Source: Escherichia phage vB_EcoM-pEB20. From it: a stretch of 64,000 bases of DNA. Position 1 is the first letter of the stretch; each line of letters begins with the position of its first letter. The notes beneath the pieces were generated by a model. The model was not told where the DNA came from and ran no database searches. It was given only the letters and a program-made list of their open reading frames with translations. The position numbers were made by a program, and so were the translations under genes. The stretch lies in sequence record OP114733; one strand, 5' to 3'. Shown here one piece after another: positions 3,298-46,905 of this stretch.

Positions 3298-4110
3298 TTA
3301 GAAACGAGATGCGACTTTCGCATATAAACTTACATTAGAATTCTGTTCTACCTGAGTTGTGGTAGTGTCAACTGCTTCGGCAACAAAATTAAGACCGGCA
3401 GCGTCATTGTCAACTGTATTTATACTTTCGGTAATAGCGGCTTCTTCTTTAGTAGAACCTTTAACCATTTCTACAATAGCAGTTAACTTAGTACCAAATG
3501 CGTCAGAATAATCCATACCTTCAACCAGGCCAATAACTTTTTCTTTCTGAGATTCAGTCAGGTCTTTTACGCTTTCATTAATAGCGGTTTCACGCTGAAC
3601 GTAATTGATATATGCATCACGTTTGGTAACTTCTTCGAACAAACGAGCGGTTTCTTCTTTATGTTCGGCCAGCTCTTCTTCCATTTCTGCTACAACATCT
3701 ACAGATTCTTCTGGAACAACAACGTTATGTTCAACAAACAGTTCTTTCAGACCACCAAGCATGGATTCGAACAAATCAGCTTTAATGCCTTTATCAACTG
3801 CGATTTGGTTTTCTGCGAGCCATTCTTTTGCAAGATGGTCCAGGAATTTAGAAGCTTGTTCAGCCAATTTTTTATCAGCTTTCTCTTCAGCATCTTCTTT
3901 AGCCTTTTCAACTTCTTCTTCGGCCTTTTCGGCGATGGCTTTGATATGAGATTCAGCCAGTTTGACTGCTTCCTGCTTAACGGTGGCTTCGAATACAGTG
4001 CTGAAATTAGCTTTAACGTCCGGAGACAGTTCTACTGATTCGAAAACACTATTAAGAGCAACTGAAGTCTCGATGTTCTGAGCTTCTTTCAAAAGTTGTT
4101 CTTTGATCAT
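3298..4110 (-). CDS. 22: prohead scaffolding core protein gp22
   Basis: 270 aa acidic, Glu/Lys-rich coiled-coil protein between 21 and 23. Confidence 0.85.
   Translation of the reverse strand: MIKEQLLKEAQNIETSVALNSVFESVELSPDVKANFSTVFEATVKQEAVKLAESHIKAIAEKAEEEVEKAKEDAEEKADKKLAEQASKFLDHLAKEWLAENQIAVDKGIKADLFESMLGGLKELFVEHNVVVPEESVDVVAEMEEELAEHKEETARLFEEVTKRDAYINYVQRETAINESVKDLTESQKEKVIGLVEGMDYSDAFGTKLTAIVEMVKGSTKEEAAITESINTVDNDAAGLNFVAEAVDTTTTQVEQNSNVSLYAKVASRF
3417..3424 (-). promoter_or_regulatory. candidate late promoter for gene 23 inside 3' end of gene 22
   Basis: rc TATAAATA about 137 bp upstream of gene 23 ATG; no closer match found. Confidence 0.3.
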
Positions 4111-4140: not shown

Positions 4141-4148
4141 TATTTATA
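4141..4148 (-). promoter_or_regulatory. late promoter TATAAATA for gene 22
   Basis: rc TATAAATA 31 bp upstream of gene 22 ATG, overlapping gene 21 stop. Confidence 0.5.
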
Positions 4149-4785
4149 ATGCTTTTAAACTCTCTGCGAGAGCTTTAAATGCTTCGTCAGCACTGTTTTT
4201 GGTGATTTCCACCGAATTTTCTGATTCTGATATTTGTTTAGGAGTAACCCAAGCATCTGGAGCAGAAGGTCCCCATACGGCATCTACGCCGACGGTTAAT
4301 TTAAATCCTTCGTTCACGATACGGTACCCTTTATTGGTGTCGGTTAAAGAACCAAGACCACGAGAGGAAACACCTGGAATCCAACCAGCTCGTATATTAG
4401 CAGCTAATTTATCGCCGGGACCATGGTCGCCTTCAATAATTCTAGCACGTCCATATACATCGTTTCCTTTCCACCACATATCTTCAATAATGATAGCGGC
4501 TTGCATAGGGTCAACATTTGCACGAGGTGGATGATTTAATTCTCCAAGGGCTTGTTTGGTTGCGACTTGTTCTTTAATATAGTCGCTTACGGCTTTTTCC
4601 AAAACGCGTTTAGGATATAAACGTTTATTTCGGTTAACAACCTCTGCCTGAAGAAAAATACCTTCTATATAAAGCCCTGGTTTTAAGCCAGAATCTTTTC
4701 CATCATGAGATTCCAACATTGGAACGCCATCAATAATCTCACCGGGTTGACCCCAAGTTTCAATAAGTAACTCGGGTTTATTCAT
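4144..4785 (-). CDS. 21: prohead core protease gp21
   Basis: 213 aa; position and length match T4 gp21 (212 aa). Confidence 0.85.
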   Translation of the reverse strand: MNKPELLIETWGQPGEIIDGVPMLESHDGKDSGLKPGLYIEGIFLQAEVVNRNKRLYPKRVLEKAVSDYIKEQVATKQALGELNHPPRANVDPMQAAIIIEDMWWKGNDVYGRARIIEGDHGPGDKLAANIRAGWIPGVSSRGLGSLTDTNKGYRIVNEGFKLTVGVDAVWGPSAPDAWVTPKQISESENSVEITKNSADEAFKALAESLKAL

Positions 4786-32344: not shown

Positions 32345-33079
32345 ATGGAGCTAATCTTTTTAAGTGGCATCAAACGTAGTGGTAAAGACACTACTGCTGA
32401 TTACATCAATTCAAACTTTAAATCTGTAAAATATCAATTAGCATATCCAATTAAAGACGCTTTAGCAATTGCCTGGGGTCGTAGGCATGCTGAAAATCCT
32501 GATGTATTCACAGAGTTGAAATACGAATACTTTGAAGGCATTGGATACGACCGTGAAACACCATTAAATCTCAATAAGTTGGATGTTATTGAATTATTGG
32601 AAGAAGCGCTAATTTATTTGCAAAGTCAATATTTGCCGATTAATAATGTTAAAGTATTATCATCGTTAGAAGGTGGATATTCGTATCTAGATATTAAACC
32701 ATATGAAGCCCTGCGTGAAGCTATAAATAATATCAACGACACATGGTCAATCCGCCGTCTTATGCAAGCCCTCGGTACGGATGTTGTCGTTAATTTATTT
32801 GACCGTATGTATTGGGTTAAACTTTTTGCATTAAACTATATGGATTATATTGGAAGTGATTTCGATTACTATGTTGTAACCGATACACGCCAAGTCCATG
32901 AAATGGAAACCGCTAGAGCGATGGGTGCTACAGTTATTCATGTGGTTCGCTCTGGTACGGAATCCACCGATAAACATATTACAGAAGCTGGGTTGCCTAT
33001 TGAAGAAGGCGATTTAGTTATTACAAACGACGGCTCTTTAGAAGAGCTTTATTCTAAAATTGAAACAATCTTAAGGTAA
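32345..33079 (+). CDS. 1: deoxynucleoside monophosphate kinase gp1
   Basis: 244 aa; P-loop GIKRSGKDT. Confidence 0.9.
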   Translation: MELIFLSGIKRSGKDTTADYINSNFKSVKYQLAYPIKDALAIAWGRRHAENPDVFTELKYEYFEGIGYDRETPLNLNKLDVIELLEEALIYLQSQYLPINNVKVLSSLEGGYSYLDIKPYEALREAINNINDTWSIRRLMQALGTDVVVNLFDRMYWVKLFALNYMDYIGSDFDYYVVTDTRQVHEMETARAMGATVIHVVRSGTESTDKHITEAGLPIEEGDLVITNDGSLEELYSKIETILR

Positions 33080-33083
33080 TAAA

Positions 33084-33769
<686 letters not shown>

Positions 33770-33783
33770 TTTTCACAAAAACA

Positions 33784-33813
33784 GTTTACATAAGGATGAT
33801 GGTGTGTTACTAT
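33784..33813 (+). promoter_or_regulatory. T4-type early promoter
   Basis: GTTTACA then spacer then gtgTTACTAT upstream of 33850. Confidence 0.4.
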
Positions 33814-33849
33814 CATCCTATCAAATAAACAAACCAAACGGAAAAACAA

Positions 33850-34161
33850 ATGAAAACTTATCAAGAGTTTATCGCTGAAGCTACTAAAGCCGATAAAAAT
33901 TTTATTATTAACACCACCGGTCCGTTAGATGATGAATACGCTAATGCTATTATTAAGTCAATTTCTAATCAAGGCGTTGAAGTAACAAATTTCGAATATA
34001 AGAAAAATGATACTTATATGGTAATTAGTATCAAAAAAGGTTCAAAGGCTAAAATTAAATCTGCATTTGGTGTTATGCGAGTTGACCAAATTGATAACCA
34101 TGATTTTTCACAAACAGGGGTCAAACGCCAGAATACTATTTCATCTAAAGGCATAAAATAA
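33850..34161 (+). CDS. internal protein with capsid-targeting sequence
   Basis: N-terminus MKTYQEFIAE matches the T4 internal-protein CTS. Confidence 0.7.
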   Translation: MKTYQEFIAEATKADKNFIINTTGPLDDEYANAIIKSISNQGVEVTNFEYKKNDTYMVISIKKGSKAKIKSAFGVMRVDQIDNHDFSQTGVKRQNTISSKGIK

Positions 34162-34190
34162 TTTACAACACGATAGGACTATGTTATAGT
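34161..34190 (+). promoter_or_regulatory. early promoter in stem-loop cassette (PeSL-like)
   Basis: ATTTACA -35; 9-bp inverted repeat ataggacta/tagtcctat around the -10. Confidence 0.4.
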
Positions 34191-34222
34191 AGTCCTATCA
34201 AAACAACAAAATGGAACCTAAA

Positions 34223-34486
34223 ATGAAAACTTTCAACGAATTCATCTCAGAATCGTCTGGTATGAAAATTAACAAAGCGGTCAATCAGGTTATTGCTGAT
34301 ATTCTTAATTTGTATAACATTGACTTAACTCCGCATATCACGCTTGGTAACAAACGAAACTTTTTCGTATTTGACACATCCGAACTTGATGAAAATCAGT
34401 TCAATAACATTCAACGTTTTGCGAATGATAAAGGTCTTCGACACGAGCCTGGTGGCTATAAAAAATACGCAATATATTTGAAATAA
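34223..34486 (+). CDS. internal-protein-like (CTS variant)
   Basis: N-terminus MKTFNEFISE. Confidence 0.55.
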   Translation: MKTFNEFISESSGMKINKAVNQVIADILNLYNIDLTPHITLGNKRNFFVFDTSELDENQFNNIQRFANDKGLRHEPGGYKKYAIYLK

Positions 34487-34555
34487 AGGTATACAAGCCT
34501 ATAGGGATATGTTATAGTAGTCCTATCAAAACAAATGAGTAAATGGAGAAATAAA

Positions 34556-34741
34556 ATGAAACGCGCTGAACTGATTCGTAATGTTGCTGTAGTAATTGCT
34601 TCAATGGCTTTTAGCTTTTCAATGTTTGTAGGATTCATTTGTGGACTACTGACAACAACTGAAAACTCTATCTCATTGGTAGTAGCATTTCTAATCGGCT
34701 TAATCGCTATCGTTATGGATAAAATTGCAAAAGGTGAGTAA
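34556..34741 (+). CDS. small membrane protein
   Basis: about 61 aa with two hydrophobic helices; in-frame ATG also at 34535. Confidence 0.5.
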   Translation: MKRAELIRNVAVVIASMAFSFSMFVGFICGLLTTTENSISLVVAFLIGLIAIVMDKIAKGE

Positions 34742-35991: not shown

Positions 35992-36065
35992 GGCCCTGTA
36001 GCTCAACGGTTAGCAGCAGTCCCCTCATAAGGGAAAGGTTACCAGTTCGAATCTGGTCTGGGTCA
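35992..36065 (+). tRNA. tRNA with anticodon CAU (Ile2/Met type)
   Basis: cloverleaf folded by hand; anticodon loop CTCATAA; T-arm ACCAG-TTCGAAT-CTGGT; CCA not encoded. Confidence 0.7.
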
Positions 36066-36071
36066 TATATT

Positions 36072-36148
<77 letters not shown>

Positions 36149-36897: not shown

Positions 36898-37362
36898 ATG
36901 AAATCATATGCAGAATTTTTGACTGAACAATCTAGTTCAGATGTAAAAGCCGCTGCGATTGCAGCAATTCAAGCAGGTAAATATTCTTACAAAGACGCCT
37001 CTGATGAAGAACGTTTCCGTTTTATTAGAGATTTTAAAGCCGAAGGTTTTACTAATGCTAATACTGTTAGCCGAGTTTTTAAAAGCCTAGCTGCGTCAGG
37101 TGAATTGTTCCAGAAAGCTACAGGTAAAGCACCTGCGCCAAAAACAGACCCTAAAGCAGCTCAAGAAAAAAATATCGCCAAAGGAATTATTTCTAAGTAT
37201 GAAGCAATTCTTAAAGAGCTTTTAGTAATCAAAACAGAAGGCCAGAAACTGGCACGAGCACATAGCTTCAAAGATAATCCTCACGCTCATAGCCTTGAGT
37301 ATGTTGAAGATATCCAAAAACTTATTAAAGACCGTATCTGGTCTGCTAAACAAATTAAATAA
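36898..37362 (+). CDS. internal protein (IPIII-like) with capsid-targeting sequence
   Basis: N-terminus MKSYAEFLTE; 154 aa Ala/Lys-rich. Confidence 0.65.
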   Translation: MKSYAEFLTEQSSSDVKAAAIAAIQAGKYSYKDASDEERFRFIRDFKAEGFTNANTVSRVFKSLAASGELFQKATGKAPAPKTDPKAAQEKNIAKGIISKYEAILKELLVIKTEGQKLARAHSFKDNPHAHSLEYVEDIQKLIKDRIWSAKQIK

Positions 37363-44638: not shown

Positions 44639-44662
44639 TACCTCCTATAAACATGGGAGGTA
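44639..44662 (+). promoter_or_regulatory. stem-loop sequestering the lysozyme ribosome-binding site
   Basis: tacctcc-tataaacatg-ggaggta pairs the SD GGAGG 5 nt before the e ATG. Confidence 0.6.
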
Positions 44663-44664
44663 TT

Positions 44665-45153
44665 ATGAATATATTTGAAATGCTTCGTAATGACGAAGGT
44701 CTTAGACTGACTTTATACAAAGACACTGAAGGCTTTTGGACGATTGGCATCGGCCATTTAGTAACAAAGAACCCGTCTTTAGCCGTAGCTAAAGCTGAAC
44801 TTGACAGAATGATCGGTCGTAAATGCAACGGTACAATTACCCTTGATGAGGCTGAAAAGCTATTTAATGAAGACGTTGATAAAGCCGTCCGCGGAATCTT
44901 GGGTAATGCTAAACTTAAACCGGTATATGATTCTTTAGATGCGGTTCGTCGATGCGCATTGGTTAATATGGTCTTCCAAATGGGTGTATCAGGCGTCGCC
45001 GGTTTTACTAATTCTCTTCGTATGCTTCAACAGAAACGTTGGGATGAAGCGGCAGTAAATCTAGCCCAATCTAAATGGTATCGTCAGACACCTAATCGTG
45101 CGAAACGCGTAATCTCAACATTTAAAACAGGAACTTGGAAAGCGTATATATGA
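44665..45153 (+). CDS. e: lysozyme (endolysin) e
   Basis: [32 protein letters not shown] matches T4 lysozyme; 162 aa by coordinates. Confidence 0.95.
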
Positions 45154-45431
45154 AAACATATAGTGAATTTTTATCAGAATCTATTCTTAACGAAGCTACT
45201 GACACATTTGCAACTAAGCTAGGTGCAGCTTTGGTTGAAGCTGAAAGTCTATTAGCACGTATTTCTGAACTTGCTAGTAAGATAGATACTCGCAAATTTG
45301 AACGTACCAGCGATATCGCTAAGCTTGAAGCCTTGTTACGTATGTGCGATAAACCGGAAGAAATCGCTAAGAACGGCTCGCTAATGAAACAACGTCTTGA
45401 AAAATATATTTCAGGCGCTTCGGAAAAATAG
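45150..45431 (+). CDS. internal protein with capsid-targeting sequence
   Basis: N-terminus [10 protein letters not shown]; ATGA overlap with e stop. Confidence 0.65.
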
Positions 45432-45462: not shown

Positions 45463-45489
45463 ACATTCATCAACTACTTGGAGGAAATT

Positions 45490-45903
45490 ATGACCCGTAT
45501 CAATTTAACACTTGTTTCTGAACTGTCCGACCAACATCTTATGGCTGAGTATCGTGAATTACCACGCGTATTTGGTGCAGTCCGTAAACATGTTCAAAAC
45601 GGTAAACGTGTAAAGGATTTTAAAATCTCTCCAACATTTATCTTAGGCACAGGTCACGTAACATTCTTTTACGACAAACTCGAATTTTTACGTTTACGAC
45701 AAATCGAGCTAATCGCTGAATGCTTGAAACGTGGTTTCAAAATCAAGGACACGACTGTCCAGGATATTTCCGACATCCCTGCCGAATTTCGTAATAATTA
45801 TGTCCCGTCCGAAGCGTCCATTGCGATAAGTCAAGCACGCTTAGATGAAAAAATTGCTCAACGTCCGACTTGGTACAAATACTATGGTAAATCAATTTAC
45901 TAA
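45490..45903 (+). CDS. denV: endonuclease V (pyrimidine dimer DNA glycosylase) DenV
   Basis: [12 protein letters not shown]...[17 protein letters not shown] matches T4 DenV; 137 aa. Confidence 0.95.
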
Positions 45904-45910
45904 GGAAAAA

Positions 45911-46171
45911 ATGAAAATGTATCAAGAATTTATCACTGAAGCAGATGCCAAAGGTCCTAAATTTAAAGTTAAAGCTTTCATTGGTGATGCGGAAGACTTT
46001 GGCTCATTAAAACGTAATGGGTATTCTTTCTTAGGTGGCAATGGTAAAGAAATCAACACCTATGCAAAACGTAGTGAAATTGCTTATGTTGTAGCAAGCC
46101 CTAAAGTAGATGTTGACGATATTGGATACGATTTTAACAACTTCGGAATTATTTCTGGCGGTAAAGATTAA
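45911..46171 (+). CDS. internal protein (IPII-like) with capsid-targeting sequence
   Basis: N-terminus MKMYQEFITE; about 86 aa. Confidence 0.65.
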   Translation: MKMYQEFITEADAKGPKFKVKAFIGDAEDFGSLKRNGYSFLGGNGKEINTYAKRSEIAYVVASPKVDVDDIGYDFNNFGIISGGKD

Positions 46172-46235: not shown

Positions 46236-46550
46236 ATGAAAACGTATAAAGAATTTATTGCAGAATCCGCCAACCAACGCGTTGAAGGTGGTTATATTTG
46301 GATTGAACAAGTTGAGCCACCGAGCCGCACTTCTACAGGTAAATGGAAAATTACTGTTGACGGTCCTGGCGGTAAACGTAGGACTCTTAAAGAAATTAAC
46401 GGGTACTATGAAGAAGCTCTTTCGGATGCAGGAACTTACATGATGCAAATCATGATTAAAAACCCTGAAAACCGTTTTGCAGCTAAAGTCTTCCGCCGTA
46501 TTGGTAATAAACTTTATGATGCATACTCTAAAAACTTCCCTAAAGAATAA
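46236..46550 (+). CDS. internal protein with capsid-targeting sequence
   Basis: N-terminus MKTYKEFIAE. Confidence 0.65.
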   Translation: MKTYKEFIAESANQRVEGGYIWIEQVEPPSRTSTGKWKITVDGPGGKRRTLKEINGYYEEALSDAGTYMMQIMIKNPENRFAAKVFRRIGNKLYDAYSKNFPKE

Positions 46551-46575: not shown

Positions 46576-46905
46576 ATGAAAACATATCAGGAGTTTATCA
46601 CTGAAGTTACATTATCTGCGGAACAGAAAGCTGCTATCGAAGAAGGTAAAAATCCCAAAGTAACATATAAAGTAAATAGTAAAGGCGTTTTTGATGGCTT
46701 GGTTCAAGACCCTGAATTGAAAAAAGCTCTTTCTAAAACTAATGCGTACTTTGCTCCTAAATTTAACACAGCCGGTGTACTTATTGGATTGGATGTATTC
46801 AACTCTAAAGGTGTTCTATCTAATGCCTTTGGTTATGCCGCTAACAAAATTACCAAAGCCGCATGGGAATCCAATACCAAACAAGCTCAAAAGCCTAGAG
46901 TATAA
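46576..46905 (+). CDS. internal protein with capsid-targeting sequence
   Basis: N-terminus MKTYQEFITE. Confidence 0.65.
   Translation: MKTYQEFITEVTLSAEQKAAIEEGKNPKVTYKVNSKGVFDGLVQDPELKKALSKTNAYFAPKFNTAGVLIGLDVFNSKGVLSNAFGYAANKITKAAWESNTKQAQKPRV

Follow-up and report, generated by a model that had tools for sequence, protein, structure and literature searches.

What are the two small genes that lie between the anti-CBASS gene 57B and a trna.4-like gene in this phage, and against what might their products act? The initial annotation had picked out two ORFs immediately downstream of 57B by their N-termini, MKTYQEFIAE and MKTFNEFISE, and had read these as capsid-targeting sequences (CTS) ending in the (L/I)xE site of the prohead protease. 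In the window (the whole 64,000-nt stretch of DNA that was analysed) both ORFs are present on the + strand directly 3′ of 57B (Table 1), and residues 8–10 are I-A-E and I-S-E respectively, in agreement with that description.

Identity of the two genes

When the window was scanned in six frames with the pattern MK.[YFW].[EDK]F..E, seven ORFs were found, beginning at 33850, 34223, 36898, 45150, 45911, 46236 and 46576, and none was found in 200 shuffles of the window used as the control; the presence of CTS ORFs is real and statistically solid. A GGAA-type Shine–Dalgarno sequence lies 6–12 nt 5′ of the MK... ATG in all seven, which makes 34223 a better start for the second ORF than the in-frame ATG upstream at 34211. 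The upstream ATG would give a product beginning MEPKMKTF...; no ribosome-binding site precedes it, and the CTS would come to lie four residues inside the protein, so that this start is probably a mis-annotation. We note that this MEPK-MKTF... start is the one used in RB69 ipI and in the cluster representative P0001.

The window region is 94–97 % identical to RB69-like Mosigvirus phages, among them SF, phiE142, mogra, APCEc01 and RB69, and the phage is an RB69-like T-even phage of the genus Mosigvirus. The first protein is, on sequence similarity, a member of the Ip7 family. It matches PHROG 2667 ('internal head protein') over its full length (E=1.9e-38) and has 100 % identity with a protein of phage p000v, 98 % with the 'internal head protein' of phage SF and near-identity with RB69p156 (Ip7), and its phage mogra counterpart is annotated 'internal head protein 7'. 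More distant matches are to the gene annotated ip7 in phage T2 (66 % identity, 100 % coverage) and to P0023, the 'Ip7 protein' of WG01 (63 % identity); genes annotated ip7 are known in T2, VR5/VR7 and WG01, and the window protein is homologous over its full length. Homologues occur in 281 phage records, and the T2 ip7 product, RB69p156 and the 'internal head protein 7' of mogra and Shf125875 have the same CTS, MKTYQEFIAE. The C-terminus of RB69p156 is 5 residues longer than that of the window protein, with otherwise no difference of substance. An exhaustive HMMER search of 1.84 billion representatives with the Ip7 profile returned only 4 hits, corresponding to two Ip7 relatives, one Ip7–Ip9 fusion and one repeat protein, the last of which is considered spurious. 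No Ip7 relative lacking a CTS was among them, and judging from this search Ip7 has almost no relatives outside the T4-like phages.

The second protein belongs, by the same kind of comparison, to the Ip9 family, whose name derives from the T-even phage RB15 (UniProt Q38376). It matches PHROG 7673 ('internal head protein') over its full length (E=2.2e-48), its phage mogra counterpart is annotated 'Ip9 putative internal head protein', and homologues are present in 175 phage records. Identity to Ip9 of RB15 (Q38376, P0011) is 70 % with 100 % coverage (E=6e-31), and the proteins of RB15, VR5, VR7 and VR25 (approximately 70 % identity over the full length) are alike in CTS type, size and kind of locus. 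The window protein differs from RB15 Ip9 in being 87 rather than 90 aa long, with a post-CTS linker shorter by 3 residues, and its CTS is MKTFNEFISE whereas RB15-type Ip9 has MKTYQEFISE; its gene is the second after 57B, while RB15-type ip9 is the first. A link between Ip9 and the 2H phosphoesterases (Acb1/57B-like), prompted by the common TPHITL motif, was considered and rejected. Ip9 contains one H-x-T/S motif only, its His41 is not conserved among homologues (Y, R, E or C in that column), and the blastp match between Ip9 and 57B extends over just 8 residues.

The full-length PHROG matches and the named relatives bear out the proposal that both are CTS internal-protein genes. In the profile searches, PHROG 2667 and 7673 gave 'internal head protein', and Pfam, NCBIfam and PADLOC gave no match. 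The sighting itself is not new, as both genes are already named and annotated in close relatives.

Table 1. Positions of the features discussed; coordinates are those of the window, except that the prefix L denotes other phage contigs
Feature	Position	Strand	Remarks
gp22 scaffolding core protein	3298..4110	-	presumed CTS-binding core; Pfam T4_CASP, E=1.5e-89
gp21 prohead core serine protease	4144..4785	-	expected to cut after CTS Glu10; Pfam Peptidase_S77, E=2.9e-107
gene 1 (dNMP kinase)	32345-33079		5′ of 57A
57A	33084-33314		between gene 1 and 57B
57B / acb1, anti-CBASS 2H phosphodiesterase	33314..33769	+	Pfam PF23474 Acb1, E=1.3e-58
early-promoter/stem-loop cassette copy 1	33785..33829	+	TTTACA, 17-nt spacer, TG-extended TACTAT
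ip7-family internal-protein gene	33850..34161	+	103 aa, MKTYQEFIAEATKADK...; PHROG 2667 and homologues
CTS of ip7-family ORF, MKTYQEFIAE	33850-33879	+	codons 1-10
early-promoter/stem-loop cassette copy 2	34162..34206	+	TTTACA, 17-nt spacer, TG-extended TATAGT
ip9-family internal-protein gene	34223..34486	+	87 aa, MKTFNEFISESSGMK...; PHROG 7673 and homologues
CTS of ip9-family ORF, MKTFNEFISE	34223-34252	+	codons 1-10
segment unlike RB69	34250..34488	+	blastn, window vs RB69; ipI mature part in RB69
early-promoter/stem-loop cassette copy 3	34490..34534	+	TATACA, 17-nt spacer, TATAGT; 5′ of trna.4-like gene
trna.4-like small membrane protein	34556..34741	+	PHROG 1692; residues 8-68 of ORF 34535-34741
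third CTS-type ORF, MKSYAEFLTE	36898-37362	+	154 aa; between tRNA genes and e.8
lysozyme e	44653-45153		just before IP locus 2
CTS ORFs of IP locus 2	45150-45431, 45911-46171, 46236-46550, 46576-46905	+	flanking denV
denV	45478-45903		amid CTS ORFs of IP locus 2
free-standing Ip9-domain genes	L004:2507-2725, L005:2492-2716, L009-L012:4001-4219		Kagunavirus and Seuratvirus
YX22 972-aa protein with Ip9-like end	L008:2625-5543	-	PHROG 3867
YX22 101-aa protein, MKPFIEYFKE	L008:2245-2550	-	next gene; T4 CTS spacing
YX22 protease	L015:34270-34935	-	Peptidase_S77, E=1.9e-29

A variable locus and its promoter/stem-loop cassettes

The gene order in T4 is 2 - 3 - 1 - 57A - 57B - ipI - trna.4 - trna.3 - trna.2 - tRNAs (NC_000866), and the order 57B - ORF - ORF - trna.4 in the window corresponds to the T4 slot 57B-ipI-trna.4. 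The view that the T4 ip genes are not at this position is wrong, since T4 ipI sits directly 3′ of 57B, and the description of the two ORFs as extra cargo genes does not stand either: the genes are variable occupants of a locus rather than additions to it, and T4, RB69 and Bas37 all keep internal-protein genes in this slot. RB69 has two of them (57B-Ip7-ipI-tRNA.4, where Ip7 is RB69p156), as does Bas37 (KarlGJung). The left flank of the locus is the conserved gene 57B, whose window copy is 85 % identical to that of T4. The trna.4-like gene, the counterpart of RB69 tRNA.4 and T4 trna.4, is the conserved right flank, and is followed by trna.3- and trna.2-like ORFs and then by tRNA-Met and tRNA-Arg (35992-36148). 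We note that the anti-CBASS gene 57B (Acb1) here adjoins two internal-protein genes, which are candidates for counter-defence in their own right.

Two highly variable internal-protein loci and more than 30 internal-protein variants are reported for T-even phages, findings that PMC2839356 and PMC4122927 credit to Repoila et al. (1994). Both window genes are within one of these loci (57B-trna.4, the other being around e/denV), and the two ORFs are very probably ip7 and ip9 alleles in IP locus 1 of an RB69-like T-even phage. As a discovery this matters little: the genes, the CTS and the hypervariable locus are credited to the 1994 paper.

Each of the two genes, and the trna.4-like gene after them, is preceded by a copy of an early-promoter/stem-loop cassette (Table 1). 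The three copies form a 43-nt repeat family (D1) at 33787-33829, 34164-34206 (the reference copy) and 34492-34534, in each of which a -35 element of the TTTACA type is separated by 17 nt from a TG-extended -10 element, and copy 2 is the best promoter match of the region in a promoter scan, at 10/12 positions. Copies 1 and 2 have embedded hairpins of 11–12 bp with stems unlike in sequence (33793-33819, -15.4 kcal/mol, z=-4.3; 34172-34199, -16.6 kcal/mol, z=-8.2). In copy 3 the palindrome is degenerate, and it folds no better than shuffled sequence (z=0.1). T4 has the same promoter/stem-loop arrangement 5′ of ipI and of trna.4. IP-associated elements of this kind are described as T4 early promoters with AT-rich stem-loops, again credited to Repoila et al. 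(1994) in PMC2839356 and PMC4122927. Like these elements and the PeSL cassettes (Repoila 1994; Arbiol 2010; Comeau 2014), in which repeated units flank each small gene, the window cassettes coincide with exchange boundaries, although the T-even elements are analogues and not homologues of the RB49/phi1 PeSLs (Arbiol 2010).

The boundaries are evident in a blastn comparison with RB69. Homology extends from 33000 to 34249 (93.6 %), taking in Ip7, cassette 2 and the second gene's CTS codons, and begins again with cassette 3 at 34489 (93.4 %). Since homology breaks only at 34250-34488, only the part coding for the mature domain has been exchanged, ipI against ip9; the exchangeable segment has the CTS codons as its left border and cassette copy 3 as its right. 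Other arrangements of the same genes exist, in that the order is Ip9-Ip7 in some Tequatrovirus genomes, for example N2, KIT06 and Pu-Krd-SF5, and ip7 and ip9 are approximately 11–13 kb apart in VR5, SP18 and UP19. In OLB35 the 77-aa product P0017 ('ip7 protein') results from an in-frame deletion that joins the Ip7 core, ending in ...KAKIKSSF, to the C-terminal 32 residues of Ip9, DENQFNNIQRF...AIYLK, which shows that the Ip7–Ip9 tandem occurs in other phages and is prone to deletion. The module would consist of a T4-type early promoter with its AT-rich stem-loop, a GGAA Shine–Dalgarno sequence, a 10-codon CTS and an unrelated small basic alpha/beta domain, and recombination between the conserved CTS codons and the promoter/stem-loop repeats would swap mature domains among related phages. 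The arrangement variants and the OLB35 fusion fit such cassette shuffling through CTS and promoter/stem-loop sequences.

The remaining CTS ORFs lie elsewhere in the window. The ORF at 36898-37362 lies outside both classical internal-protein loci, with a terminator-like hairpin and a AATAAATAG motif on its 5′ side, and is likely to encode an unannotated internal protein. It belongs to PHROG 2280, of unknown function; homologues are found in 511 phage records, and among 25 listed ones all that are annotated say 'hypothetical protein'. RB69ORF149c, at the same site in RB69, has the CTS and a different mature part. In IP locus 2, the protein encoded from 45150 and Bas37_0261 (annotated ipI in Bas37) have 48 % identity, and the gene at 46236 has an early-promoter cassette of its own, TTTACG...TATAAT...CTATCAAAACAA.

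Predicted packaging and the mature domains

The first 10 residues of IPIII are sufficient to package even foreign proteins; within them residues 4 and 7 matter in targeting and residues 8 and 10 in processing, and Asp at position 10 blocks cleavage (PMC9026906). Both window ORFs conform, with Y/F at position 4, F at 7, I at 8 and E at 10, and the ten-residue propeptide of the first is identical to the T4 IPII and IPIII propeptides (NC_000866). The gp23 capsid protein and gp20 portal are also encoded in the window, together with the gp21 protease and gp22 core protein listed in Table 1. By analogy with T4 IPIII, the CTS would give each precursor an affinity for the scaffolding core, so that it is built into the prohead, and the gp21 protease would cut after Glu10 (I-x-E). 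The mature proteins (about 10.3 and 8.9 kDa) would then stay in the head with the DNA and be injected with it, and so could act ahead of any phage gene expression. We infer targeting, cleavage and injection from the identity of the motif and from the gp21 and gp22 genes. A literature search for Ip7 and Ip9 returned only unrelated papers, and no proteomic report on either protein was found in the library searched.

Predicted mature Ip7 has 93 aa (pI 9.5) and predicted mature Ip9 77 aa (pI 9.0), compared with 76 aa and pI 9.0 for IPI*. In AlphaFold models both proteins begin with a short CTS helix and continue as a compact alpha/beta domain. The Ip9 model (pLDDT 89.7) has the topology alpha-beta-beta-alpha-beta-beta. 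In the Ip7 model (pLDDT 76) residues 16-81 form a core of topology beta-alpha-beta-beta-alpha-beta, and residues 85-103 at the C-terminus are a basic, disordered tail. Neither protein had a match in PDB sequence searches, and no function was obtained for either from families, solved structures or fold matches. By blastp the mature parts have no sequence similarity to IPI, IPII, IPIII or Bas37_0260 beyond the CTS; homology to the McrBC inhibitor Bas37_0260 (MZ501089) was considered and rejected, the alignment being of the CTS only.

Candidate targets and the Ip9 domain outside the T-even phages

The T4 proteins Ip1, Ip2 and Ip3 are inhibitors of GmrSD type IV enzymes, each of a different one (PMC12373910), and Bas37_0260, the product of the second gene of the 57B-trna.4 locus in a T4 relative, inhibits McrBC (bioRxiv 10.1101/2025.11.20.689424). 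With all four of the characterized T-even internal proteins acting in this way, an anti-type-IV role is the best guess for Ip7 and Ip9, and GmrSD- or McrBC-like type IV enzymes are candidate targets; the hint at GmrSD in the initial annotation, given there by way of T4 IPI, is for the window proteins a reasonable guess. RB69 DNA contains arabinosyl-hmC and is attacked by GmrSD enzymes (PMC6024577), and we propose tentatively, as something that could well prove true or false, that Ip7 and Ip9 each neutralize one specific variant of a host nuclease attacking incoming DNA hypermodified with arabinosyl-hmC. Since every T-even internal protein so far tested is a type IV inhibitor, Ip7 and Ip9 are good and cheap candidates for the next inhibitor–target pairs, especially for phages with arabinosyl-hmC DNA.

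The closest parallels extend only so far. T4 IPI, whose IPI* form inhibits GmrSD, occupies the same slot 3′ of 57B behind the same early-promoter/stem-loop element, and has an N-terminal propeptide ending in E and a basic mature form of approximately 8 kDa like those of the window proteins. Its propeptide, however, has 19 residues rather than 10, its mature domain has no detectable similarity to Ip7 or Ip9, and anti-GmrSD activity is reported for IPI only. Bas37_0260 is likewise the product of the second of two CTS genes in its locus and has an identical CTS, but there is no similarity to the window proteins past the CTS region.

A modestly new point is that Kagunavirus and Seuratvirus siphoviruses have the mature Ip9 domain as a protein of 72–74 aa that lacks a CTS. 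The start Met of these free-standing proteins aligns with Met14 of the window protein. On four independent contigs of 41–45 kb the gene is always the first in a rightward array of small genes, following a divergent region of approximately 480 bp beside an HTH gene and primase/helicase. The Seuratvirus KS_A3 copy (L005) carries the automatic annotation 'internal head protein', which is probably wrong, since the protein is without a CTS. In the Ackermannviridae phage YX22 the same domain is the C-terminal part of a 972-aa protein (PHROG 7673, E=9.4e-11). These comparisons suggest that in the Ip9 lineage an early gene that already existed had a CTS grafted onto it, and the clean cassette boundaries together with the CTS-less relatives show a route by which an ordinary early gene could become injected cargo.

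This distribution bears directly on the target. The free-standing and the fused forms both speak for a reading in which Ip7 and Ip9 are injected but act on some defence or host function that is not type IV restriction, and Ip9 especially could then hit something common to the hosts of siphoviruses. To our knowledge no hmC-type DNA modification occurs in the siphoviruses with the Ip9 domain or in the Ackermannviridae phage, so the Ip9 target may not be a type IV enzyme and may be broader than any single one. Seuratvirus-type phages are nevertheless reported to carry modified DNA, which leaves room for a modification-dependent nuclease, and the uniform record of the characterized T-even internal proteins also speaks for type IV targets; we regard a target of another kind as somewhat unlikely. 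A related and doubtful proposal makes the mature Ip9 domain a portable anti-host module that separate phage lineages deliver in three ways. It would be injected from the capsid behind a CTS in T-even phages, expressed from the leading gene of a small-accessory-gene array in Kagunavirus and Seuratvirus, and fused to the C-terminus of the 972-aa protein, with its CTS-like N-terminus, in an Ackermannviridae phage. If all three forms share one host target, that target would be a broadly distributed defence, and the reach of an Ip9 inhibitor would be wider than that of the subtype-specific T4 internal proteins.

The high pI of both mature proteins and the basic disordered tail of Ip7 would also be expected of generic head-filling or DNA-associated proteins that have no specific anti-defence target. 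We consider this improbable: turnover of the cassettes between near-identical genomes is rapid, the AlphaFold models give the mature domains a compact fold, and T4 Ip2 and Ip3, long regarded in this way, are now shown to be specific GmrSD inhibitors (PMC12373910).

Least probable is that the ORFs are not packaged and encode early cytoplasmic proteins with a vestigial N-terminus: the promoters directly 5′ are of the early type only and in other phages relatives of Ip9 work without a CTS, but T4 ipI, whose product is treated in the literature as packaged and injected, has the same promoter and stem-loop, CTS positions 4, 7, 8 and 10 are conserved across homologues with overall identity as low as approximately 45–70 %, and the ten-residue CTS is enough by itself for packaging, as cited above. 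No canonical late promoter (TATAAATA) was found directly 5′ of either gene, the nearest + strand copies being at 32722 and 30297; none was seen in the sequence immediately 5′ of T4 ipI either, and since that gene shows the same upstream architecture we judge the missing late promoter to be uninformative.

CTS-like capsid targeting in the Ackermannviridae is a possibility raised by the YX22 sequences. The 972-aa protein begins MSKLSFLQFMQE, with the CTS spacing of aromatic, Phe, hydrophobic and Glu residues, the next gene has a similar N-terminus (Table 1), and YX22 encodes a T4-type scaffold as well as a protease. A record labelled 'Enterococcus phage Efm 3-10' (L013, OR844944.1, UNVERIFIED_ORG) contains a gene for a 783-aa protein that in its C-terminal half is almost the same as the YX22 protein; ORFs with the CTS-like N-termini MKPFIEYFKEQ and MKGFQDFLLKE come after it. 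Its Enterococcus host label is doubtful, and the Enterococcus match to Ip9 (H109) was rejected as a sign of spread to Gram-positive hosts, given the UNVERIFIED_ORG status and the close resemblance of the protein to that of YX22.
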